Source of the DNA: an uncultured Pseudomonadota bacterium
Lineage (GTDB): Bacteria > Pseudomonadota > Alphaproteobacteria > UBA9219
NCBI GenBank assembly: GCA_903869345.1
Contig: CAIPYM010000024.1
Span: forward strand, 3,703 to 67,702
DNA length: 64,000 bases
Direction of reading: 5' to 3'
Part shown: positions 6,999 to 50,017 of the stretch, in pieces
Numbering within the stretch: position 1 is the stretch's first letter
How the letters are laid out: every line of letters begins with the position of its first letter
Notes under the pieces: generated by a model
The model's input: the letters and a program-made list of their open reading frames with translations, nothing else
Told to the model about the DNA's origin: nothing
The model's database searches: none
Made by a program: the position numbers and the translations under genes

Positions 6999-7126
6999 CG
7001 TCACCCCGGCGAAAGCCGGGGTCCCTGGTTCAGCCGCCCCCGAAAAACGGCTCTGGATCCCGGCTTTCGCCGGGATGACGCGGGAGGGACAGAGCTAAAA
7101 AAAGGGCATTTTGTGCCGTGTCGCAG
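6999..7126. repeat. Family A palindromic element (MITE-like) with conserved tail
   Basis: CGTCACCCCGGCGAAAGCCGGGGTCC ... GGATCCCGGCTTTCGCCGGGATGACG, then GGGAGGGACAGAGCTAAAAAAAGGGCATTTTGTGCCGTGTCGCAG; related copies at 10728, 30530, 53290, 62094. Confidence 0.7.
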
Positions 7127-10399: not shown

Positions 10400-11224
10400 A
10401 TGATCGCCCTTGTTGACAGTGGCGTTGCGAATCTGACCTCCGTGAGGCTGGCGCTGTTGCGCCTCGGGGCGGAGGTGACGGTTACGGCAGACCCGGACAT
10501 CGTGCGCGGCGCGAGTCACGTTGTGCTGCCGGGGGTTGGCTCGGCGGGGCCCGCGATGGCCAAACTGCGGGAACGCGGGTTGATTGAGGTCCTTCAGGGC
10601 CTCACGCAGCCGCTCCTCGGCATTTGCCTCGGCATGCAGTTGTTGTTCGAGGATTCGGAGGAGGGCGCAGCGGGGGGCGGCGCAACATGCGGGGCAGGAG
10701 TTTGCGCGGCGGCGTGTTCACCCCCTTCCGTCACCCCGGCAAAGGCCGGGGTCCAGAGGGGAAACTCCCTCGCGTTCGAAAAAGAGGCCCTGGATTCCGG
10801 CTTTCCCCGGAAGGGCACCGAGGAGATTTTTCACGAACCGTCCTCCCGGCGAAAGCCGGGATCCAGGGAAACGGACGGGGGGGCGGTTGGGAACAGGGGG
10901 ACACGGACCTGCCTTGGGCTGATCCCTGGGCGGGTGGAGCTCCTCCCCGCCGCGCCCGAAACCCCCGTGCCGCACATGGGGTGGAGCCGCCTGACGTTGG
11001 AGCGCCCGGACCATCCCCTGCTTCACGCCATCCCCGCCGACGGGTACGTTTACTTTGTCCACAGCTACGCCGTGGTTCCAGGCCCCTTCACGCTCGCGAC
11101 GGCCCACCACGGAGTCCCCTTCACCGCCATCGCCGGGCGCGACAACGTCATGGGCTGCCAGTTCCACCCCGAACGCTCCGGCCCCCTCGGAGCCCAGGTG
11201 CTGCGGAATTTTGTGGGGATGTAG
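10400..11224 (+). CDS. hisH: Imidazole glycerol phosphate synthase glutaminase subunit HisH carrying an in-frame insertion of about 75 aa derived from a family A repeat
   Basis: MIALVDSGVANL, catalytic GICLGMQLLFE and C-terminal CQFHPERSG are all in one frame; between EEG and GLIPGRV the frame reads through repeat-derived sequence (SVTPAKAGVQ...SFPRKGT...SSRRKPGSRE). Confidence 0.8.
   Translation: MIALVDSGVANLTSVRLALLRLGAEVTVTADPDIVRGASHVVLPGVGSAGPAMAKLRERGLIEVLQGLTQPLLGICLGMQLLFEDSEEGAAGGGATCGAGVCAAACSPPSVTPAKAGVQRGNSLAFEKEALDSGFPRKGTEEIFHEPSSRRKPGSRETDGGAVGNRGTRTCLGLIPGRVELLPAAPETPVPHMGWSRLTLERPDHPLLHAIPADGYVYFVHSYAVVPGPFTLATAHHGVPFTAIAGRDNVMGCQFHPERSGPLGAQVLRNFVGM
10728..10868. repeat. 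Family A palindromic element inserted inside the hisH coding sequence
   Basis: CGTCACCCCGGCAAAGGCCGGGGTCC ... TGGATTCCGGCTTTCCCCGGAAGG ... TCCTCCCGGCGAAAGCCGGGATCCAGG; same hairpin modules as intergenic copies. Confidence 0.7.
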
Positions 11225-11281
11225 GTCCAATTGTCCCCATCGTAAAAAACATTTGTTATTTGCATGAATTTCTGCTTCTAT

Positions 11282-11329
11282 ATCCTGCCGTGGACAATTT
11301 GCCACATCCTGCCGTGGACAATTTGCCAC
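11282..11329. repeat. Perfect tandem direct repeat 2 x 24 bp (ATCCTGCCGTGGACAATTTGCCAC)
   Basis: Read directly; lies in an AT-rich intergenic stretch 30 bp upstream of the ORF at 11359; iteron/operator-like. Confidence 0.8.
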
Positions 11330-11358
11330 ATTGGAGCGGGAACACAAAAGAAAAAGGG

Positions 11359-12066
11359 ATGAACATGCAAAATTCGTTTACACAACGAAACAGCCAGCGA
11401 CGTGATATCAGCATGCTGGCCGTTAGAAAAATGACGCTTTTCGAACAAAGCATCGTGCGTCTCGTGGAGTCCTTAGCAGCAAAAGGTTTAACCCCCATCG
11501 TGCGTGAACAGGCCCAGCCTGTTATAAACGATCCGAAGCACGCACTTCTCTTTCCTCACAGTCTGTCCCTCACAGGATGGACCGTTGGCTCAGGCCCCCA
11601 ATGTTCTTCGGAGACTCAACAAAACTGCGACTTTAGATTGCAACATTTTGCTACAAGAAATACTGGGCTTATGTCTTCTAGCACTCGAGGGCGTTGGGGG
11701 CAGTTTCTTGTCGTAAGTGTAATGGATGGTTTTGATGATCAAGGGCCTATGGGCCTACCGTACCCCCCAGATCGCAGCCAATCCAGACCTGCAAACGGAC
11801 ACCTCATCCTGCTTTCAACAAGACCTCCTGCAGACCATATACCGAAGAAGAGAACGCTTCACGAAGACCGGCGACCAGCGTCCGTGCGGGTTATACTGCC
11901 AACCGGACACGTCCACACTCTTCCGCATTCCCATCAATGGGGAAACCCGCAGACGTTGCCCGATCTCTTACTGGCGGCAAACGAAGTGTTGAAGCGAGCA
12001 CGCACTCAAAGTCTAGGGCACGCTTTAAATCGAAGGGAATTCTTGACTGAACTTGAGTTGATTTAA
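11359..12066 (+). CDS. Hypothetical protein in AT-rich islet; faint, frame-split GGDEF-like C-terminal signature (possibly a decayed gene)
   Basis: 235-aa ORF at about 45% GC against a 65% backbone; weak resemblance of RRPASVRVILPTG...LLLAANEVLKRARTQ to the GGDEF C-terminal half; no intact GG(D/E)EF motif. Confidence 0.35.
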   Translation: MNMQNSFTQRNSQRRDISMLAVRKMTLFEQSIVRLVESLAAKGLTPIVREQAQPVINDPKHALLFPHSLSLTGWTVGSGPQCSSETQQNCDFRLQHFATRNTGLMSSSTRGRWGQFLVVSVMDGFDDQGPMGLPYPPDRSQSRPANGHLILLSTRPPADHIPKKRTLHEDRRPASVRVILPTGHVHTLPHSHQWGNPQTLPDLLLAANEVLKRARTQSLGHALNRREFLTELELI

Positions 12067-15512: not shown

Positions 15513-16322
15513 TTAGTCCGGTCGTTCGCCACTCTGACGAGGAGGCTGGCAGAGCGCTCGGCTTCCGCGCTCCCGAATGAACCCCAGGACATGCTGAACC
15601 GCTTGGGAATCCGGGTAGAGCCCCGCCGCGTCGTCCACGCGTTCGGCCAGGGTGCCCTCGTCGGAAAACAAGAGGCGGTAGACGGCCCGCAGAATGTGAA
15701 CGTCCTCCCGTCCAAATCCGCGCCGCTCCAGCCCCACGAGGTTCAACCCCGCAAGATGCGCCCGCTCGCCCTTCACAAGCCCGTAAGGGATCACGTCGTG
15801 CTCAACGCCCGACATGCCGCCGATCATCGCGTGGTCGCCGATGCGCACGAACTGGTGAACGGCGGACAGGCCCCCGAGAATGGCGTAATCGCCGATCGTC
15901 ACGTGCCCCGCCAGCGTCGCGTTGTTGGCCAGGATCACGTGGTCGCCCACCTGACAATCATGCGCGACATGGGCCCCGACCATGAACAAGCCATGGTCGC
16001 CCACCCGAGTCACCATGCCCCCGCCTTCGGTGCCGGGATTCATCGTGACGTGTTCGCGGATCTGGTTGTCCGCGCCGATGACCAGCCGGGAGGACTCGCC
16101 GTGGTATTTCAAATCCTGCGGCCGCTGGCCAAGCGAGGCGAAAGGATACACCGTCGTGCGGGCCCCGATCTCGGTCCGTCCGTCCACGACCACGTGCGCG
16201 ACGAGCCGGACCCCTTCACCCAGCGTGACGTTCTCGCCCACCACGCAATAGGGGCCGATGACAACCCCTTCGCCCAGGTGCGCGCCCGGATGGATGACGG
16301 CCGTGGCGTGAACGTCACCCAT
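15513..16322 (-). CDS. lpxA: Acyl-[ACP]--UDP-N-acetylglucosamine O-acyltransferase
   Basis: Start at [29 protein letters not shown]; left-handed beta-helix hexapeptide repeats and LpxA C-terminal helical domain; 8-bp overlap with fabZ. Confidence 0.9.
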
Positions 16323-16821
16323 GGGACAGCCGCGCCGCACGGTCGGGGTCGGGCACCAACATCGCCGTGTAAAGGGCTTCGGCGCACAAGCGATCACCCA
16401 CAAACGCCTCGCCACGGAACTTCCAGACCTCGCCACGTTGCCGCTCACGGTTGACGTGAATGCGCATTTGGTCGCCCGGCACAACAGGGTGACGGAACCG
16501 CGCACTGTCGATGCCCATGAAATAGACGACGTGCGAGGCGGCCGTCACGCCCTCCAGCGAGGCGACGACAAGCGTCGCCGAGGTCTGCGCCATGGCCTCG
16601 ATGATGAGCACCCCCGGCATGATGGGATGCCCCGGAAAATGCCCTTGAAAGAACGGCTCGTTGGCCGAGACGTTCTTGAGCCCCACGCAGCTTTCCCCGC
16701 GCACGATGTCCACGACGCGGTCAATGAGCAACATCGGGTAACGGTGCGGGATTCGCTCCATGATCCCGATGATGTCCAACGTTTCAAGCGGACGCGGAGC
16801 GGAAGGCGAATCGCTGGTCAT
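16315..16821 (-). CDS. fabZ: 3-hydroxyacyl-[ACP] dehydratase
   Basis: LPHRYP-type motif ([13 protein letters not shown]), catalytic [20 protein letters not shown]. Confidence 0.9.
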
Positions 16822-33017: not shown

Positions 33018-34085
33018 ATGGCCCGTGTTGTTCCCCTTGATCCCCTGCGCCGGGCCAAGCGTGCGCAAGCCTCAAGCGCAGAAAACCCCTCGCGCCTGCG
33101 GGGGGACGGTTCGGCACTCACCCGCTTGACCGCACTGGTTGAGGACGATCTGACTGCCGTTAACAACCTTGTTCTTCAACGTCTTCTGAGTCGCGTTCCG
33201 CTCGTGCCCCAGCTGGCACGTCACGTCATTGCCGCTGGGGGCAAACGCCTTCGGCCTCTTTTGACGCTCGCAGGGGCTCGGCTTTGCGGTTACGAGGGAA
33301 CGCGGCATCACGCGCTGGCCGCCTGCGTGGAGTTCATGCACACGGCGACGTTGCTGCACGACGACGTTGTGGACGCCAGCACCGTGCGACGCGGCGTGCC
33401 TTCCGCCAATGCCCTTTTCGGCAATGCGTCGAGCGTCCTGGTCGGCGATTTTCTCATCAGCCGCGCGTTTCAGATGATGGTGGAGGACGGCTCGCTGGAT
33501 GTTTTGCGCATCCTCGCGGACACGGGGGCTGTCATCGCGGAAGGTGAGGTTCGCCAGCTGGAGGCGGCCCGTACCAGCACGCTCAGCGAACAGACCTACC
33601 TCGACATTATCCGCGCCAAAACCGCCGAGCTTTTCGCGGCGTCGTGCCAAATTGGAGCGGTTGTTGCGGGGCGGCCCGCGCCCGAGGAAGAAGCGCTCCG
33701 GACGTTCGGCCTGAACCTGGGGATTGCGTTTCAGATCGCGGACGACGTGTTGGATTACGGCGGTGAGCAAACGTTGCTTGGCAAAACGGTCGGGGACGAC
33801 TTCCGCGAAGGCAAGGTGACCCTGCCCGTCATTCTGGCCATTCACCGGGGCAACGAGGCCGAGCGCGCCTTTTGGCGGCGAACGATGGAAGAGCAAGACC
33901 GACGGCCCGAAGACTTGCTCCACGCGCAACGACTCTTGCAGGCGCGGGAGGCGTTGCGCGATTCCTTGGAGCGTGCCCACCACTACGGCGCGATGGCGCG
34001 GGATGCACTCGGGCTTTTTCCGGACACGCCCCTCCGCCGCGTGCTGCTCGATCTCGTGGACTTCGCCGTCGACCGGGATTTCTGA
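33018..34085 (+). CDS. ispB: Polyprenyl (octaprenyl) diphosphate synthase
   Basis: FARM LLHDDVVDAS and SARM GIAFQIADDVLDY motifs. Confidence 0.9.
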   Translation: MARVVPLDPLRRAKRAQASSAENPSRLRGDGSALTRLTALVEDDLTAVNNLVLQRLLSRVPLVPQLARHVIAAGGKRLRPLLTLAGARLCGYEGTRHHALAACVEFMHTATLLHDDVVDASTVRRGVPSANALFGNASSVLVGDFLISRAFQMMVEDGSLDVLRILADTGAVIAEGEVRQLEAARTSTLSEQTYLDIIRAKTAELFAASCQIGAVVAGRPAPEEEALRTFGLNLGIAFQIADDVLDYGGEQTLLGKTVGDDFREGKVTLPVILAIHRGNEAERAFWRRTMEEQDRRPEDLLHAQRLLQAREALRDSLERAHHYGAMARDALGLFPDTPLRRVLLDLVDFAVDRDF

Positions 34086-34236
34086 AGGCACGGGGTTTCC
34101 GGGAAGGCGTTGACGGTACGCGGCGGAGAATCCGCCCCGAATCGTCGACGTTCATCTGGCACCCCCACGTTTTGATCACGACATGACGCGGCGCGAGGAC
34201 GCCTTCGGGAGGAGAGGATTTTTTCTGGATTTTTTT

Positions 34237-34317
34237 CTTGACTCGGCGGGTTCAAAGGGGTATTGACAAACCCATGGCGTAGTGTACCCGCGTTTTGGCC
34301 GAATCGCGGGTTTTTTT
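34237..34317 (+). promoter_or_regulatory. Candidate sigma70-like promoter (TTGACT-N17-TATTGA) followed within about 45 nt by a terminator hairpin (ACCCGCG-N12-CGCGGGT plus T7): possible tiny transcript/attenuator
   Basis: Read directly from the sequence in the ispB/phosphoesterase intergenic region; contains a mini-ORF ATG-GCG-TAG. Confidence 0.3.
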
Positions 34318-34574
34318 GTGCCCAAACGGTGGAAAAAGCCCTGTTTTCCGCCCGTGTGTCGTCCGTTTTTGACCATCCCCGATAGAGGACCAGATCCCCG
34401 CTGGGGTCCGAGGGATGAGGGACCCCGCCCTCGCATCCTCCCCCCAAAACGGCGCTCCAGGATTGATGGAGATTTTGGCGGAGAAACAAAGGCCGATCCG
34501 CCTTTTTGACTTTTCAAAACGACCTCGCTATTGAGCGCCCGTGTTGGTGTCGGGACGACCTCGTGAGAGAACAC

Positions 34575-36074
34575 ATGTTTAAAAAACAAGAAAGAACCAA
34601 GATTAAAACGGGCGACGTTCGCACGATTGAGATTCAGGGACTTGATTTTAAGCTGCAATTTATTCGTCGTGCCGATGGCACGGATGCTCTCTGTCATGAC
34701 ATGTCTATTTCAGACCTGCATTTGGGCACCTTCATGGCCTATGCCGGGGAACAAGCACATATGCTGTCCCACGTGCAGCCCCGGCGCCTATGGCTTGTGG
34801 GCGACATCGTCGATCTGGAGGCGATGAAGGGGAAAAGGCGTTTCAAATTCCCCGATAATCATTGGCTCGTTCTCGCCTCTCTTTTCAAGCTGGCCCATCA
34901 GGGAGCAGACGTCACCTATATTCCGGGCAATCACGAAGCTGAAAGGGTGCGCGGCAAAACAATTCAACAGGTTACAGGCACGGACAAGCATCATCGCCGC
35001 GCAACGGGGAGAACGCTCTTCGGGGTCAAGATCGAACACACGGCGGAATATATAACGGCTGACGGAAAAAAAGGCTTGGTTGAACATGGCGACGCCCGCG
35101 ATCCTCCGAGGATTAAGGCGCTTTATGGTATCGGGAACGCCGCCTACGAGCTTGTGGCGCGGCTTGATAAGGTCATTCATCATCAATTTGTTCAGACCGT
35201 CCTGCAGTGCATTTCCCCACCCCTCGCGGAACGCGCGAAGCATTTTTCGCCTGCACGCGCGGCGAAGCACCTCATTAAAGATTTCATCAACAAACACATG
35301 GGCGTCCTATCGGGCCTGGAAACGTGGCTGCGAGACTCGCCATATACTTTTATCCTCTATGGCCATACCCATATGCCGGGCATTGTCAAAGTTGTTACGG
35401 AGGGCGGCACAAAATACATCATCAACGACGGTTGTGGCACGGAGGGGGTTAGCGCGGCTCTGTTTGATGCCGATGGCAAGCCTGCCATCATGCGTTGGTG
35501 TTCGGATCGTATCGAGGTGACGGATGCAGACGGCACGACCAAAACGGTCGTCTTTGCCGACTATGGCATCAAGATCGACCCGACGCATCACCCGATCACC
35601 CGGGACGTGAACACTGGGCAGGCAAGCCACCCGTTCGTTCAACCAGAGTATTTTGATCGAACAGCGCGTGTTCTGCGTGTGATCCGGCAGATTGTGCCTG
35701 GGAAAGAGCGACTCCACCTGCTTGCTCAATACCGTCAGGCACGACGTGAGGTGGGATGGAGACAAAAGCAAAGCGCGTCAACACCCCAGGATTCACAACG
35801 TGTGATCAATCTCAGGATAAGACTTCGGCAAGAAGCCGAACGCACGATGCCAACCTATCCTGAGCCCCACCGTGCGGCGCAGGTGAAATGGCGTAAAGCG
35901 AGAGGGCGGATGCGGGCGAGGCGGAACAGAGTCGCGGGGGTTATTGCTTTATTTGACCCAACTGCTGCAGAAGTATTCCGAACCTCAGTAATAAGACGAC
36001 CGTCGTTCAAGCGTGTCTTACCCCCAGGTGCTTTTCAACACCCCCCCCCTTCGATGGGCGAGCTCACCCTCTAA
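34575..36074 (+). CDS. Calcineurin-like metallophosphoesterase with a long basic C-terminal extension, in an AT-richer islet
   Basis: Metallophosphatase motifs ISDLHLG, GDIVD, GNHE, GHTH; C-terminal 170 aa Arg/Lys-rich (RQARREVGWRQK...WRKARGRMRARRNR) without recognisable domain; GC about 52%. Confidence 0.65.
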   Translation: MFKKQERTKIKTGDVRTIEIQGLDFKLQFIRRADGTDALCHDMSISDLHLGTFMAYAGEQAHMLSHVQPRRLWLVGDIVDLEAMKGKRRFKFPDNHWLVLASLFKLAHQGADVTYIPGNHEAERVRGKTIQQVTGTDKHHRRATGRTLFGVKIEHTAEYITADGKKGLVEHGDARDPPRIKALYGIGNAAYELVARLDKVIHHQFVQTVLQCISPPLAERAKHFSPARAAKHLIKDFINKHMGVLSGLETWLRDSPYTFILYGHTHMPGIVKVVTEGGTKYIINDGCGTEGVSAALFDADGKPAIMRWCSDRIEVTDADGTTKTVVFADYGIKIDPTHHPITRDVNTGQASHPFVQPEYFDRTARVLRVIRQIVPGKERLHLLAQYRQARREVGWRQKQSASTPQDSQRVINLRIRLRQEAERTMPTYPEPHRAAQVKWRKARGRMRARRNRVAGVIALFDPTAAEVFRTSVIRRPSFKRVLPPGAFQHPPPSMGELTL

Positions 36075-36112
36075 CCCGACGTCACAAAAACCCCACATCA
36101 ACTGCTTCCCCC

Positions 36113-38125
36113 CTACGCATCCACGTCCTTCACGTACGGCGCGTTGTCTTGGATGAATCGGAACCGGGCTTCGGCCTTGCGTCCCATGAGGCTTTCGACG
36201 AGGGCCTCGGTCGTGCGGCGCTCCTCGGCGGGGTTGGGCTCGTCGGGCAGGGCCACGCGCACGCGCAAGAGGGAGCGTGATGCAGTGGCCATCGTCGTCT
36301 CGCGCAGTTGGGCGGGCATCATCTCGCCGAGGCCTTTAAAGCGGCTGATCTCCACCTTGGAGTTGCCCTTGAACGCGGTTTCCAAAAGCCTGTCGCGGTG
36401 GGCCTCGTCGCGGGCATAAAGCGTCTGGCCCTTGGAGCTGAGTCGGTAGAGCGGCGGCTGCGCCAGGTAAAGGTGCCCGCTGTCCACGAGCCCCGGCATC
36501 TCGCGGTAAAAGAACGTCATGAGCAGCGAAGCGATGTGCGCCCCGTCCACGTCGGCGTCGGTCATGATGATGACGCGCTCGTAGCGCAGCTTAGCCCCGT
36601 CAAACGCGCTGCCCAGGCCGCACCCCAGCGCTTGCGTGAGGTCCGCGATTTCCTGGTTGGCGCGGAGTTTTTCAACGCTGGCGCTGGCGACGTTGAGAAT
36701 CTTGCCGCGCAAGGGGAGGATGGCTTGCGTTTCCCGGTCCCGCGCTTGTTTAGCCGACCCGCCTGCCGAATCACCTTCGACCAGGAAAATCTCGGTGCCC
36801 TCGGGCGCAGTGCGGGCGCAATCGGCCAGTTTGCCAGGTAAGCGCAGCCGCCGCGTGGCGGTCTTGCGGGCCATGTCGCGGGCTTGGGAGAGGCGCAGGC
36901 GCTCCTCGGCCCGCAGAATCAGGCGCTCCAACAGCACGCTGCTACCCGCAGGATCGGCGGCGAGCCAATGGTCCAGGTGGTCTTTCACAACCTGGTCCAC
37001 AAGCCGCAGAGCCTCGGCGTTGGAAAGCCGCTCCTTGGTCTGGCCTTGAAATTGCGGCTCCCGCAGGAAGAGCGACAAGAGGGCGCTAGCCCCGCTGAAA
37101 ACATCCTCGCCCGCAAGAACACCCGCGCGGCGGTTGCCCGTCATCTCGCCGTACCCGCGCAGCCCCCGCACGAGCGCCGAGCGCAGCCCCGATTCGTGCG
37201 TGCCGCCCTGAGGGGTCGGAACCGTGTTGCAGTACGAATGGCAAAAGCCTTCGCTGTCCTCGGGCCAAGCCACGGCCCATTCAACACGGCCCTGGCCCTC
37301 GGGCAGGTCGGCAAGCCCTGTAAAGAGCGTCGGCGTGAGGGTCGCGCGTTCGCCGAGCGCGGAGGCCAAGTAGTCCGAAAGCCCGCCGGGAAAGTGAAGC
37401 TCGGCCTCGGTGGGGGTGGGGTCGTCCGCGCCATTCAGCAACGCCGGGTCGCACGTCCACCGGATCGTGACGCCGCGAAACAGGTACGCCTTGGACCGGG
37501 CGAGGCGAAACAGCGTCGCGGGCTTGAACCGCGCCTTGGTGCCGAAGATTTGCGGGTCGGGCGAAAACGTCACGCTCGTTCCCCGGCGCGAGGTTGCGCC
37601 TGAAGCCTTCACGGGGCCCTCGGGGACGCCGCGATGGTAGGTCTGGACGTGAAGGCGTTTGTCCCGCGCGACTTCGACAACCAGGGTTTCCGCCAACGCG
37701 TTGACGACGGAAACACCCACGCCGTGCAAGCCGCCCGCCGTCTCGTAGACTTTGTTCGAAAACTTTCCGCCCGAGTGCAGGGTCGTCAGAATAATCTGCA
37801 AGGCCGAAATGCCCGGAAACTTGGGGTGCGGGTCCACGGGGATTCCGCGCCCGTTGTCGTGCACCGTGACGCTGGTGGCCGAGTTCAGCACCATCTCGAT
37901 CCGGCTCGCGTAGCCCGCGACGGCTTCGTCCATGGCGTTGTCCAGAACTTCGGCCACAAGGTGATGCAGCGCGGCTTCGTCCGTGCCGCCGATGTACATG
38001 CCGGGGCGACGACGGACGGGCTCCAGGCCTTCCAGAACCTCAATGTCGTGGGCGCTGTACGAATCACTTTTGCCCCGCGAAGAGGGGACGGCGGGGGGCA
38101 GCAAAAAGGTGTCGCTTGGGGTCAT
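36113..38125 (-). CDS. parE: DNA topoisomerase IV subunit B
   Basis: GHKL ATPase (EVLDNAMDEA, GLHGVGVSVVNAL) plus TOPRIM; 670 aa without the long GyrB-specific insertion. Confidence 0.85.
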   Translation of the reverse strand: MTPSDTFLLPPAVPSSRGKSDSYSAHDIEVLEGLEPVRRRPGMYIGGTDEAALHHLVAEVLDNAMDEAVAGYASRIEMVLNSATSVTVHDNGRGIPVDPHPKFPGISALQIILTTLHSGGKFSNKVYETAGGLHGVGVSVVNALAETLVVEVARDKRLHVQTYHRGVPEGPVKASGATSRRGTSVTFSPDPQIFGTKARFKPATLFRLARSKAYLFRGVTIRWTCDPALLNGADDPTPTEAELHFPGGLSDYLASALGERATLTPTLFTGLADLPEGQGRVEWAVAWPEDSEGFCHSYCNTVPTPQGGTHESGLRSALVRGLRGYGEMTGNRRAGVLAGEDVFSGASALLSLFLREPQFQGQTKERLSNAEALRLVDQVVKDHLDHWLAADPAGSSVLLERLILRAEERLRLSQARDMARKTATRRLRLPGKLADCARTAPEGTEIFLVEGDSAGGSAKQARDRETQAILPLRGKILNVASASVEKLRANQEIADLTQALGCGLGSAFDGAKLRYERVIIMTDADVDGAHIASLLMTFFYREMPGLVDSGHLYLAQPPLYRLSSKGQTLYARDEAHRDRLLETAFKGNSKVEISRFKGLGEMMPAQLRETTMATASRSLLRVRVALPDEPNPAEERRTTEALVESLMGRKAEARFRFIQDNAPYVKDVDA

Positions 38126-38327
38126 CGTCCGAGACGCTCAGTAAACGGAGTTCGGGAAAGGCTGGACTATGGAGCACAGGCAAGAGCGAGAGCAAGAGGA
38201 TAGACAAATTGAGAGGTTAAGAGGCAAACTCTCTCCCCGGAAGAAGGAAGAGCTCCACGGGCAGGTTAGCCTTGGTGGGGGAAGTCTTCCGTTGCAACGG
38301 CTTGTTGAGTGAGGGCGGAGTTCTCCC

Positions 38328-40040
38328 ATGCGGTTTGCGACGAATCTTAAGATCGTCTTGTGCCGGGTCTGTATGGCGTGGTGCCTGAGTATCATCGTAT
38401 CGTCAGGGAGCTGGGCCGCCGTTTTGCTGGGCCCCGCCGACGCGGGACGCATCGGGGAACGTGAGGAGAATCAGCAACCGACTCTCCCCCTTGTCACGGC
38501 TCCCCTCGAAAAGCCCCGCGAGATGTCTCCTCCTGGTCAGGCTCCGGAGGGAAGTGAGCGCACAACGATTCATGTGCGCAGCGTGTCCATCCTTGGCACA
38601 CGTGTTTTTTCAAAAGCCGAGCTTCACGACCTTTACGCCGCCTACCTTGACCATGACATCACGGCGAACAAGGTGTGGACCCTTGCCGAGCAGGTGACCG
38701 AGAAGTACCGCAAGGCGGGGTATTTTCTCTCGCGGGCGTATGTCCCTCAGCAGGATATGAAAAACGGAAACATCCTCCTTCGTGTGGTGGAAGGCTTCAT
38801 TGGAGAGGTCCGTTGCGATGATGCCTTGGCCAAAAACCATCTTATCAAACAAGGAACCGATAAGCTCCTTTCGTTCCGCCCCCTGAAGGCCGATCAGATT
38901 GAGAATGTTCTCTTGCTGTTGAACGATCTGCCGGGCGTTAGCCTGCAGGCGATTATGGAGGAAATGCCCTCGGGCACCGGTGCTGAAGGCGCTGTGCGGC
39001 TTGTTTTGAAAAACAGGCCTGAGCCGCGTGTCACGGGGTCCGTCGGTGTCGACAATTTGGGTTCGCGTTTTCTGGGACCTTATGAGGGCCAGGCCCAAAC
39101 GCAGGTTGTCGTCTTTCCCAATCAACGAACGACGCTCAACGTGTTTTCTTCTCTGCCTTGGAATGAGGTTAAATATGGCAGCCTCAAGCACGAGGCTACG
39201 CTGGTGCCCGGCGGGACGCTGACCGTTTACGGCTCACGCACGGCGGCAGCTCCCGGCTACACCCTGAAGCCTGAGGAGATCAAAAGCCGATCGACCGCCG
39301 TGGGAACCGCCTTTGAGTACAGTTTCATCCGACAGCGGGATGAGAACGTCAGAGGGCGCGTGGCATTAGAGGGGCGAGACACGTCGTCGGACACGCTGGG
39401 AAGCCCCCTGACACGGGATCGTGTCCGCACAGCAAGCATCGGGATGAGCTATCAAAACGCTGACCGATTCAGCGGACAAAATTTCGCAAGTGCCACGGTG
39501 ACGCAAGGGCTTCCGGTCTTGGGTTCCAATCGACCGGGCCAACTCAATCTTTCTCGCGCCGATGCAAGGCCGGATTTTACGAAAATGGGGCTGAAGGCCT
39601 CTCGGGTCCAAGCCCTTCCCAACACCTGGGAGGTTTCAACCGCGGTTGCTGCGCAGGTCGCCTCCGGGACTCTCTACTCGTCCGAGCAATTTGGGCATGG
39701 CGGCCAAGCGTTTGGTCGTGCCTATGACGATTCTGAGATCATGGGGGATCACGGAGTCGCGTTCTCTGCAGAAGTCCGCTACGGCGGTGCGCCAGCGTGG
39801 GGCGGGTTTCTCCTCATCCCGTACGGGTTTTATGACCGAGGTACGGTCTGGAACACAGCGAGCACGGCCCAAAAATCCGAATCGGGCAGTTCGGCAGGGG
39901 TGGGGTTCCGCGTGGCGTCGGATTATGGCGTCTCAGGGAGCTTTGGCCTTGCCTTTCCCTTAACCCGCCGAATCACGACACCTGTGTACGGGAATGGGGA
40001 AAACCCTCGCTATTTCTTTCAGATTGAGCATCAGTTCTGA
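38328..40040 (+). CDS. Two-partner secretion transporter TpsB (ShlB/FhaC/HecB family), orphan
   Basis: Signal peptide, POTRA region (IHVRSVSILGTRVFSKAELHDLYAAYL), 16-strand barrel ending in aromatic F; no TpsA-like large exoprotein adjacent. Confidence 0.8.
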   Translation: MRFATNLKIVLCRVCMAWCLSIIVSSGSWAAVLLGPADAGRIGEREENQQPTLPLVTAPLEKPREMSPPGQAPEGSERTTIHVRSVSILGTRVFSKAELHDLYAAYLDHDITANKVWTLAEQVTEKYRKAGYFLSRAYVPQQDMKNGNILLRVVEGFIGEVRCDDALAKNHLIKQGTDKLLSFRPLKADQIENVLLLLNDLPGVSLQAIMEEMPSGTGAEGAVRLVLKNRPEPRVTGSVGVDNLGSRFLGPYEGQAQTQVVVFPNQRTTLNVFSSLPWNEVKYGSLKHEATLVPGGTLTVYGSRTAAAPGYTLKPEEIKSRSTAVGTAFEYSFIRQRDENVRGRVALEGRDTSSDTLGSPLTRDRVRTASIGMSYQNADRFSGQNFASATVTQGLPVLGSNRPGQLNLSRADARPDFTKMGLKASRVQALPNTWEVSTAVAAQVASGTLYSSEQFGHGGQAFGRAYDDSEIMGDHGVAFSAEVRYGGAPAWGGFLLIPYGFYDRGTVWNTASTAQKSESGSSAGVGFRVASDYGVSGSFGLAFPLTRRITTPVYGNGENPRYFFQIEHQF

Positions 40041-42930: not shown

Positions 42931-43761
42931 TCACCCACCCGTTCGCTCTGCCCTCTCCTCCCCCATCACCCCGCCGCAACGGAAGGGGGTGATGCGCTTG
43001 GCAAGGCCGGTTGAATCGTCGGTTTCCAGAAACACACCGCAGACGGTGGCCTCACCCTCGGCAGGCGCGAGACGCTCGCCGGGGATCTTGCGCGTGAACC
43101 GCCAGACCGCCGCGTCTTTTTGGTTGCCAATCACACTGTCGTAATCACCGCACATCCCGGCATCGGTCAGGTAAGCAGTCCCGCGCGGCAGGATCCGCGC
43201 GTCCGCCGTGGGGACGTGCGTGTGCGTTCCCACAACCGCCGACACGCGCCCATCCAGGACGTTCGCCAAGGCCATTTTCTCGGCCGTTGTCTCGGCGTGA
43301 AAGTCCACGAAAATCGCGTTCACACCCGAAGTGCCGAGGGATTGCCGCGCGAGCACGGCCTCGGTTGCCGCAAACGGATCATCGATAAGGTGACCCGTGA
43401 ACAAACGCCCGAGGGGGTTCAGAACCAAGAGTCCCCGCCCGTCCGGGAGTTTGTGCCAATAGAGCCCCCGCCCCGGCGTGCCTTCGGGATAGTTGAGGGG
43501 ACGGAGGAGCCGGGGCTCGCTGTCAATCGTTCCCACCAGTTCCCGTTGATCCCAGACGTGATTGCCCGTCGTGAAGACATGGATGCCCAGCTCGGTCAGT
43601 TCGCGCACGATTTTCAGCGTCACGCCAAACCCCCTCGCCGCGTTCTCAACGTTCGCGATCACAACCTCGGGGTGAAACCGATCCCGCAGCACGGGCACAT
43701 GCCGCGCAAGTCCGTCGCGCCCGCTGCGGCCTACGACATCGCCAAAAAACACAAGACGCAT
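42931..43761 (-). CDS. YmdB-family metallophosphoesterase
   Basis: ATG 43761 with AGGAG RBS; MRLVFFGDVVGRSGR..., GNHVWD, GTHTHVPTADARIL motifs. Confidence 0.8.
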   Translation of the reverse strand: MRLVFFGDVVGRSGRDGLARHVPVLRDRFHPEVVIANVENAARGFGVTLKIVRELTELGIHVFTTGNHVWDQRELVGTIDSEPRLLRPLNYPEGTPGRGLYWHKLPDGRGLLVLNPLGRLFTGHLIDDPFAATEAVLARQSLGTSGVNAIFVDFHAETTAEKMALANVLDGRVSAVVGTHTHVPTADARILPRGTAYLTDAGMCGDYDSVIGNQKDAAVWRFTRKIPGERLAPAEGEATVCGVFLETDDSTGLAKRITPFRCGGVMGEERAERTGG

Positions 43762-49267: not shown

Positions 49268-50017
49268 ATGACTGCAGAAGAGATAGGGAAAGCCCGCATC
49301 CAATCGGCAAAAAAATTGGCAGAAACTCACGGCATCGATGTGATGGGTTGGAATGACAAAAGGGGCAAAGAATTTATAAGCGTGTTCAATGCAAGCGGTG
49401 ACAATGAAAAGCTTCAAGTGCTCCAAAAAGAAATGGAGAAAAATGGGTGGATTGCTCACCCCGTTGAGGAGAAAAACGAAGGATATTACATGGATTTTGG
49501 CATGCAAAAACCACCAACTGATTTAAAAAGGCAGAAACAGGCGGACATTCATGGCATTGAACCTGTCGTTTTTTATATGAAGGAACGTTTCCGATACAGT
49601 GGTGTAAAAACAGGATATGTGAACTCTGTCATTTACATCAGTCTTATGGTTCTCTTTCTCGTTCCAACCCATCTGTCCTCTCTAAATTCGAAACATATGA
49701 TTCTCATCATGGTCGCAAGCACAATTCTGCTCTCTATAGTTGTTGCGCTCTTTCATTGGATCATCGTCACCGCTGATGCGTCGAATCTGATTATCCGCAT
49801 GCCCTTTTGGTTTGACATTCAATCATTTCCCATATCAGACATCAAAAAAGCAACATTATACAGAGACAATGATTCTTGGTACGCCAACGTAAAAGGGGCT
49901 GTTTTCCTTTCAGTAAAATTAAAATCAGGCAAAAGTTTCGATATTTATATCCCAAAACGAGCGCGCGGTGAACTATTATCGTTCCTCAAAGGCAAGCTTC
50001 CCATCTCATCCTCCTAA
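49268..50017 (+). CDS. Hypothetical two-TM membrane protein in a strongly AT-rich islet (possible membrane-anchored bPH-like C-terminal domain)
   Basis: GC about 40% against 65% background; soluble N-domain, two central TM helices, C-terminal 80-aa domain; good ORF integrity. Confidence 0.5.
   Translation: MTAEEIGKARIQSAKKLAETHGIDVMGWNDKRGKEFISVFNASGDNEKLQVLQKEMEKNGWIAHPVEEKNEGYYMDFGMQKPPTDLKRQKQADIHGIEPVVFYMKERFRYSGVKTGYVNSVIYISLMVLFLVPTHLSSLNSKHMILIMVASTILLSIVVALFHWIIVTADASNLIIRMPFWFDIQSFPISDIKKATLYRDNDSWYANVKGAVFLSVKLKSGKSFDIYIPKRARGELLSFLKGKLPISSS

Follow-up and report, generated by a model that had tools for sequence, protein, structure and literature searches.

The stretch analyzed here, 64 kb of contig CAIPYM010000024.1 from an uncultured alphaproteobacterium (the window, which below always means the full 64 kb), carries between its ispB and parE genes a gene for a metallophosphoesterase (MPE) that is the subject of this report. 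The 5' neighbor ispB (33018-34085, forward strand) encodes a polyprenyl synthetase, and the 3' neighbor parE (36113-38125, reverse strand), whose product has the domains of topoisomerase IV subunit B, is convergent to the phosphoesterase gene. The ORF listing draws the open reading frame (ORF) from a TTG start at 34506 to 36074; starting at the ATG at 34575, it yields a product of 499 aa, which is gene P0001 as called in the public metagenome-assembled genome (MAG) GCA_903958145.1. The window was 100% identical to the contig of this MAG as well as to a Logan contig. The first 44 residues of the product align with the N-terminus of its sole close homologue (RT(I/L)x(I/V)xGLDF(K/E)L), a protein listed below as P0002/P0121. 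An earlier note on this DNA, made from the sequence alone, had reported a calcineurin-like phosphoesterase of 500 aa, which was borne out by the 499 aa counted from ATG 34575 and by a match to Pfam family PF00149 (Metallophos) above the gathering cut-off (26.5 versus 21.5 bits). The gene and the parts of its product are listed here, with the predicted local distance difference test score (pLDDT) of the AlphaFold2 (AF2) model where it applies.

34575-36074, forward strand: gene for a putative divergent PlcP/LpxH2-type binuclear metallophosphoesterase, 499 aa, stop codon included (ORF; identical P0001 in GCA_903958145.1; PF00149; AF2 mean pLDDT 77.5)
34575-34706, forward strand: N-terminal beta extension of 44 residues with strands at residues 15-19, 26-31 and 37-39 (pLDDT 89-95 for residues 11-40; conserved with P0121)
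34707-35504, forward strand: catalytic metallophosphoesterase core, residues 45-310 (invariant ligand columns; LpxH proteins as top fold matches)
34935-35024, forward strand: clade-specific basic loop after GNHE, residues 121-150, predicted to be disordered (gap in all PlcP-likes; pLDDT 49-60)
35106-35336, forward strand: helical insertion ('lid') domain, residues 178-254, with helices 178-213, 215-221, 226-241 and 244-254 (pLDDT 77-90)
35481-35573, forward strand: extra beta hairpins, residues 303-333 (two hairpins at 303-326), which extend the core and are the last confidently folded part of the protein (pLDDT 94-95; conserved with P0002/P0121)
35574-36071, forward strand: orphan C-terminal tail, strongly basic (AF2; a hidden Markov model (HMM) search finds only the tail itself and P0002; no Pfam match)

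The gene has a GC content of 54.3% and a GC content at third codon positions (GC3) of 0.58, compared with 61.3% GC for the window. In segments of 400 nt the GC content was 0.53-0.57 across 34200-36199, while the flanks on both sides reached 0.63-0.69. The AT-rich islet is real but moderate, and the figure of about 52% GC that the earlier note had given for 34500-36100 slightly overstated it. Three other ORFs in the window had a lower GC3 than the phosphoesterase gene, and two of these were also lower in overall GC.

The metallophosphoesterase motifs are complete and consist of D47-x-H49 (ISDLHLG), G76-D77-IVD80, G118-N119-H120-E121, H171-GD and G263-H264-T-H266, so that the D-x-H, GDIVD, GNHE and GHTH motifs of the earlier note are all present. 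Their columns were invariant in an alignment of 84 sequences, and the seven metal ligands (D47, H49, D77, N119, H171, H264 and H266) as well as the general-acid H120 were intact. Judged by these residues the enzyme appears catalytically competent and metal-dependent and is probably active, as had been supposed.

The AF2 model, with pLDDT values mostly above 85 at residues 11-120, 141-180 and 241-333, has the fold of an MPE sandwich into which the helical domain of residues 178-254 is inserted. The best 25 matches of a Foldseek search against the PDB were all LpxH structures (E 4e-9 to 1e-7, target-normalised template modelling (TM) score 0.50-0.61), and a family profile retrieved LpxH chains from the PDB at E 3e-12; Rv0805 and Mre11-like PolD subunits ranked lower in these lists. 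The earlier note had regarded the architecture as unlike that of LpxH, which did not hold, since the core is, as modelled, that of an LpxH-fold enzyme with its helical insertion; the canonical ymdB that it placed at 42931 was recovered (PF13277 match). In the model the lid sits where LpxH has its lipid-binding HI domain, and in LpxH this insertion domain is known to hold both acyl chains of lipid X and to touch the membrane (PMC5016852). The best solved structures (PDB 5K8K, 5B49, 6PH9 and 8QJZ) have the MPE core, the helical insertion and the seven metal ligands in common with the window protein; unlike them, it has His in place of the Arg of GNRD, only 16% identity to E. coli LpxH, and additional N- and C-terminal parts. 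The extra beta hairpins weakly resembled the Ig-like repeats of P0122, a Gram-positive surface protein (E 1.5e-5).

After the one close homologue, the nearest sequences were hundreds of proteins of 260-313 aa carrying the name "UDP-2,3-diacylglucosamine diphosphatase/LpxH". Seven of these relatives, two long ones included, were compared with the NCBIfam LpxH equivalogs (TIGR01854, cut-off 190; NF003743, cut-off 134) and reached only 25-44 bits; the window protein matched neither equivalog even at E<=1. By these scores, the nearest relatives of about 280 aa that are named LpxH are not true LpxH. The Arg in block 3 (GNRD) marks all LpxH and binds the phosphate of lipid X, the paralogue LpxH2 has GNH(D/E) instead (PMC3087551, PMC5016852), and P. 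aeruginosa LpxH2 fails to complement an E. coli lpxH mutant (PMC3087551). In the window protein His120 aligns with Arg80 of E. coli LpxH. LpxH2 and PlcP are treated here as one family, which we assume from gene context and from the three PlcP reports cited next. PlcP is a Mn-dependent intracellular phospholipase C that frees diacylglycerol from phospholipids under phosphate starvation and is typically encoded in a plcP-agt operon (PMC4796936, PMC8528852, PMC9239053); a link to agt/GT4 or btaAB is seen at many plcP loci, not at all of them, and characterised PlcPs are published to be 46-51% identical to each other.

Gene context pointed in the same direction for several of the short relatives. 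The PlcP-like gene of Methylocystis (P0173) is directly followed on its 3' side by a GT4 glycosyltransferase gene with zero intergenic gap, that of a SAR116 bacterium (P0044) is directly followed by an agt homologue whose product is 53% identical to the Methylocystis glycosyltransferase, and a copy on a Sphingomonas megaplasmid has a family-1 glycosyltransferase gene 19 nt to its 3' side. In the SAR116 MAG, the agt homologue after plcP (L168, 5840-6697) is not among the genes called on its contig.

The family match to PlcP covers residues 45-310 of the window protein at 29-34% identity, with E 1e-16 for the sequence alone and 1e-37 with a profile. Identity to 81 PlcP-likes averaged 29% with a maximum of 32%, compared with 51% among the PlcP-likes themselves. 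PlcP-likes are at least 90% conserved at 72 positions, of which the window protein keeps 48 and E. coli LpxH 25. In a neighbor-joining tree with LpxH as the root, a long branch (0.52) leads to the window protein and its homologue, and P0093 is their sister, a placement in which long-branch artefacts are possible. The spacing of the motifs has changed as well: 46 residues precede DxH (PlcP-like median 28), the segment from GNH to HGD has 52 residues (median 36) with a post-GNHE loop about 16-21 residues longer than in PlcP-likes, the segment from HGD to GHxH has 93 (median 84) with a lid of 79 versus 70-74, and 236 residues follow GHxH (median 67, maximum 116). On these sequence comparisons the window protein is best described as a long-branch, fast-evolving offshoot of the PlcP/LpxH2 family.

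PlcP (= LpxH2; S. meliloti PlcP, Phaeobacter MED193_17359, P. aeruginosa PA3219) is accordingly the nearest sequence family, and its GNH(D/E) block 3, all of its metal ligands and a helical insertion of about 70-80 residues at the equivalent place are found in the window protein. Unlike PlcP with its 260-313 aa, the window protein has 499 aa, a basic tail of about 170 aa, an N-terminal beta extension of 44 aa and a longer basic loop after GNHE, and it falls short of the similarity of about 50% that holds within the family. Its gene also differs in having no adjacent agt, btaAB or other glycosyltransferase gene and no Pho-box match upstream, and in a GC content 7 points below that of the host. 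One further relative resembles it: P0093, an LpxH2-like protein of 456 aa from an uncultured alphaproteobacterium whose gene adjoins dnaX-ybaB, GtrA and PEBP genes, is the only other PlcP-like whose C-terminus was found to be extended by a long, basic and helical segment, and this extension opens with the helix motif of the window protein (R-x-I/L-R-x-x-x-x-L/V-x-P-G/A-R/K). P0093 differs in being 27-30% identical, in the unrelated rest of its tail, and in having neither the N-terminal extension nor the insertion after GNH.

The length of the C-terminal extension, about 170 aa, follows from the 236 residues after GHxH as opposed to the median of 67 in the nearest family. The model divides it into a disordered linker (334-357), helices at residues 358-373, 378-400, 404-424, 431-460 and 462-470 (pLDDT 55-81 for 358-470), and a terminal segment predicted to be disordered (472-499); the first of the helices is amphipathic, with a hydrophobic moment (muH) of 0.61. 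Residues 366-499 have an isoelectric point (pI) of 12.0 with 29 R/K and a net charge of +20, the charge peaking at the Arg-rich stretch RKARGRMRARRNR, and the whole protein has a pI of 10.0. Basic tails, with a pI of 10-12, are found in all three extended proteins. An Arg/Lys-rich extension of 170 residues with no recognisable domain, as originally proposed, is indeed what Pfam and HMM searches of the tail returned: nothing was matched in Pfam even at E<=10, and a tail HMM run against all 1.84 billion cluster representatives found only the tail itself, P0002 and a weak Ig-repeat match of the beta hairpin. A profile seeded with the three extended proteins retrieved no fourth long member, and bit scores fell from 584 to 146. 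Residues 380-429 (35712-35861) resembled the start of the parvulin domain of Pin1 (HLL..H/Y.Q.RR...WRQ.Q; phmmer against the PDB, E 0.04); with no Pfam rotamase match, this similarity was judged to be due to chance.

The gene is rare. Among 5.8 billion protein clusters only one relative above 35% identity was present, the homologue P0002/P0121 (49% identical), which is encoded on a metagenome contig from ENA (L003). This copy likewise differs in composition from its surroundings, with 44-50% GC compared with 52-60% for its neighbors pheA, kdsB and cytochrome c genes, i.e. about 10 points below, and it is flanked by AT-rich spacers. The description of the window gene as AT-rich, poorly conserved and outside the core gene set therefore stood up. 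By comparison, hundreds of homologues at 60-73% identity exist for the neighboring ParE, so the phosphoesterase is far more isolated than housekeeping genes. Synteny was compared at 160 loci, of which 80 were parE loci of GTDB species representatives, with up to 73% identity, and 80 were metagenomic ispB loci, where one partial match reached 74% and the others at most 66%. Neither the phosphoesterase nor an ispB-parE adjacency was present among these 160 loci, and the closest parE locus had unrelated neighbors. The locus showed no integrase, no tRNA, no direct repeats on its flanks and no sign of a mobile element. Judged by its composition and rarity, the gene together with the AT-richer spacer of 489 nt upstream was probably acquired horizontally as a single gene between ispB and parE.

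With regard to the host, ParE, IspB and ShlB (33018-40040) were all singletons at 90% identity among about 15 billion proteins, and in 185,579 species representatives ParE had no match above 73%. The window comes from a Rhodospirillales-like alphaproteobacterium for which no close relative has been sampled. A further candidate for a foreign gene is the most AT-rich ORF of the window (49268-50017, 41% GC, 249 aa), which has only a sub-threshold EbsA-like match and is immediately followed downstream by a pair of NfeD and SPFH (Band 7) genes.

The spacer of 489 nt between ispB and the phosphoesterase gene contains four elements.

34092-34165, forward strand: imperfect hairpin of 74 nt, beginning 7 nt downstream of the ispB stop codon (free energy (dG) -44.9 kcal/mol, z -3.69, 0 of 200 shuffles as stable)
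34238-34266, forward strand: promoter-like element P1, TTGACT-N17-TATTGA, the element of the earlier note (motif search)
34286-34317, forward strand: intrinsic-terminator-like hairpin followed by U7 (arms 34286-34292/34305-34311, 7 bp, plus 3 inner bp, dG -13.1 kcal/mol, T7 at 34311-34317)
34506-34534, forward strand: promoter-like element P2, an exact second TTGACT-N17-TATTGA and candidate promoter of the gene, 40 nt from the ATG (motif search)

The hairpin behind ispB is unique in the window and is not followed by a U-run; it could be a 3' stabiliser of the mRNA, a Rho-related element or a palindromic repeat. A T-rich stretch separates it from P1. The motif TTGACT-N17-TATTGA has two matches in the 64 kb, even with one mismatch allowed, compared with 0.04 expected, and none of the shuffled sequences had two. 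A looser form (TTGAC-N18/19-TANNN[AT]) occurs at three sites of the window, all intergenic. P1 and P2 have no similarity beyond their hexamers, which argues for a common recognising factor and against duplication. The promoter-like element of the earlier note is thus present as a motif, while a sigma-70 scan of 33800-36400 called no sites and passed over P1 since position 6 of TATTGA is not a T. The hairpin with T7 close to P1 was confirmed. It consists of a GC-rich hairpin directly followed by a U-run, as in an intrinsic terminator, and ranked 18th among 168 runs of T>=5 on both strands; a terminator scanner missed it for the sole reason that its outer loop is longer than 8 nt. It resembles Rho-independent terminators and 3'-UTR-derived small RNAs in having, downstream of ispB and on the sense strand, a GC-rich stem of 7 bp and a U7 run, and it is unlike them in lying 200 nt past the ispB stop codon, behind the hairpin of 74 nt and directly after a promoter-like motif. 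Most simply, the hairpin and U7 end the ispB transcription unit, and P2 is probably the phosphoesterase gene's own promoter.

As an alternative, P1 and the terminator, which lie 19 nt apart, might form a tiny small RNA (about 45 nt from P1 to U7) or a leader or attenuator of the phosphoesterase gene, and the recurrence of the motif at the gene start would fit the presence of one recognising factor. This is improbable. Scans of Rfam by gathering cut-off and by E-value returned nothing credible (best OmrA-B with 18.8 bits versus the gathering cut-off of 40, E 0.68), no sigma-70 site was called, the fold of the unit had a z-score of only -1.58, and the stretch of 257 nt between the terminator-like hairpin and the gene showed no unusual structure (z -0.43). 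Similar DNA was absent from all loci compared, and the region upstream of the homologue has no promoter-terminator unit.

Two further observations concern repeated sequence in the window. A GC-rich palindrome resembling repetitive extragenic palindromic (REP) elements, (GTCA)CCCGGCGAAAGCCGGG(GTCC), occurs in seven copies, mostly intergenic and in both orientations, at 7005, 7059, 10735, 10845, 30589, 53385 and 62100. Two such palindromes lie near the 5' end of an ORF of 480 aa (10624-12066), which has a GC3 of 0.50 and no Pfam match; for these reasons the ORF as drawn is unlikely to be a real gene.

The interpretation that joins the observations on the phosphoesterase, and to which we give about an even chance of being right in all its parts, is that of an LpxH-fold offshoot of PlcP which acts on a membrane lipid-type substrate, uses its basic tail as a tether, was acquired as a single gene and is transcribed from its own promoter. 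The substrate would be amphipathic and of the lipid type, and the enzyme would cleave a phosphodiester or pyrophosphate bond in it in a metal (Mn)-dependent manner; by analogy to PlcP and LpxH it would act at the cytoplasmic face of the inner membrane. Its substrate has probably shifted from that of canonical PlcP, as suggested by the change of a third of the near-invariant positions, the missing glycosyltransferase partner and the lack of a Pho-box match upstream. More tentatively, the tail and the basic loop after GNHE may tether the enzyme to, or steer it toward, an anionic surface, most simply acidic phospholipids; for the tail, a membrane-binding role is suggested by the net charge of +20 and by the amphipathic helices, which are modelled at low confidence. 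Transcription would start from the promoter-like element at 34506-34534, with the hairpin and U7 at 34286-34317 closing the ispB unit.

Several results weigh against this interpretation. An identity of only 29% to PlcP-likes, which are 51% identical among themselves, makes the inference of a substrate by homology weak. The 64 kb contain neither an agt homologue nor a second plcP, and a search for the Pho box (CTGTCAT-N4-CTGTCAT, up to 3 mismatches) gave 3 matches versus 2.4 expected, none of them upstream of the gene, although the lineage's own consensus may differ. The tail modelled alone by AF2 had no confident fold (pLDDT 52, predicted TM score (pTM) 0.25), and its strong charge is only partly conserved in the homologue P0121 (tail pI 10.9, net +9). 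The case for horizontal acquisition consists of composition and rarity only, and no empty site was found among the 160 loci, as no close genome relative is available. With respect to the promoter, TTGACT agrees with the sigma-70 hexamer at 5 of 6 positions and TATTGA at 3 of 6, which makes the latter a poor -10 element.

The protein might instead be a nuclease or a cyclic-nucleotide phosphodiesterase whose basic tail and loops bind DNA or RNA, possibly in defence. The pI of the whole protein and the charge of its tail would suit such a function, as would an isolated, AT-rich and sporadic gene, and the superfamily includes nucleases and cyclic-nucleotide phosphodiesterases, with Rv0805 and Mre11-like PolD subunits present in the lower ranks of the fold and PDB lists. 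We nevertheless consider it unlikely. PADLOC-DB contained 0 defence families matching the window protein or P0121, PHROGs had no match for the window protein and only generic MPE matches for P0121 (E about 1e-4), and the tail matches no known nucleic-acid-binding domain. The neighbors of the gene (ispB, parE, TpsB and lgt) are not defence genes; no defence, secretion or mobile-element genes are adjacent to it in the window, and housekeeping genes surround the window gene, its homologue in L003 and the gene for P0093. The closest sequences and structures belong to lipid enzymes with a helical lid, which the window protein has kept. On viral contigs and plasmids, the related genes were all of the core-only PlcP-like type with 25-31% identity. 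At least 278 contig stretches in IMG/VR encode such PlcP-likes (25-31% identity to the core), which are possibly phage auxiliary genes for lipid remodelling or host contamination. The resemblance to anti-phage nucleases or secreted effectors suggested in the earlier note was accordingly not upheld by PADLOC, PHROGs, signal-peptide prediction or the adjacent genes, and examining the homologue neighborhoods for defence islands gave housekeeping genes in all three cases.

A second alternative concerns the tail, which might be non-functional: the loss of a stop codon could have extended an ordinary PlcP-like gene into formerly non-coding DNA, the Arg and Pro residues arising from translated GC-rich sequence. 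The low-confidence structure of the tail, its orphan status among 1.84 billion proteins and a weaker periodicity of GC over the three codon positions (0.66/0.51/0.54 in the tail versus 0.60/0.40/0.59) are in line with this, but we regard it as quite unlikely. The homologue P0002/P0121 aligns through the tail to the C-terminus with the conserved blocks LRVIxxxVPG, SQR and SFKR...PG, and the long basic extension of the distant P0093 opens with an equal helix motif. On the strength of these two alignments the tail is probably translated protein.

Substrates of VirB/D4 systems carry positively charged C-terminal signals, and the window protein might by comparison be a translocated effector or toxin, i.e. 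a PlcP-like phospholipase delivered to other cells with its charged C-terminus as a type IV-like signal. The Arg-rich C-terminal RKARGRMRARRNR, followed by a disordered end, and the sporadic, AT-rich gene would agree with such a role, which is very unlikely, however, as no secretion-system, chaperone or immunity gene adjoins in the window or in L003, no N-terminal signal peptide is present, and the charge at the extreme C-terminus is not conserved in P0121. The adjacent TpsB requires a partner with a two-partner secretion (TPS) domain, and the window protein is not one. This TpsB (38328-40040, 58% GC) is of the ShlB/FhaC type (POTRA_2 + ShlB), and no TpsA-like gene lies beside it, the next genes being parE and lgt.

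The last alternative, a true UDP-2,3-diacylglucosamine hydrolase that would serve as a functional LpxH analogue in a lineage without lpxI, draws on the LpxH fold with its lid, on an lpxA-like gene in the window that is not followed by lpxI-lpxB and on the position of the L003 homologue near kdsB, but it is highly improbable given the GNH block 3 instead of the GNR of all LpxH, the 16% identity to E. coli LpxH with neither NCBIfam equivalog matched, the failure of P. aeruginosa LpxH2 to complement lpxH, and the expectation that an essential lipid A gene would not be so rare or compositionally foreign. Alphaproteobacteria usually carry a lpxD-fabZ-lpxA-lpxI-lpxB cluster. In the window the gene for an LpxA-like acyltransferase (15513-16505, reverse strand; Hexapep + Acetyltransf_11) lies outside such a cluster, between genes for a major facilitator superfamily (MFS) transporter and a solute-binding protein, which bears on the question of which UDP-diacylglucosamine hydrolase the lineage uses.

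Returning to the lipid phosphoesterase, a bolder version of this interpretation, which we hold to be unlikely, would make the window protein and its one homologue the first members of a new subfamily of LpxH-fold lipid phosphodiesterases that is horizontally mobile. In it, the orphan basic helical tail and the basic loop, which is close to the active site, would retarget a PlcP-like core to a new substrate or compartment, and an unusual duplicated TTGACT-N17-TATTGA element would drive expression. If true, the subfamily would target, for instance, an anionic lipid of the membrane such as cardiolipin, a lipid-linked sugar nucleotide, or, as a translocated phospholipase, the membrane of another cell. 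The gene itself is one more accessory enzyme that is poorly understood, and it opens no new question. In marine, soil and pathogenic bacteria that are abundant, PlcP/LpxH2 enzymes drive the remodelling of phospholipids to glycolipids when phosphorus is scarce, and LpxH serves as a target for antibiotics. The public "LpxH" labels on the proteins of about 280 aa and on the window protein are misleading. An intact active site combined with a remodelled lid, insertions and a large basic tail would show a re-purposing of the LpxH fold.

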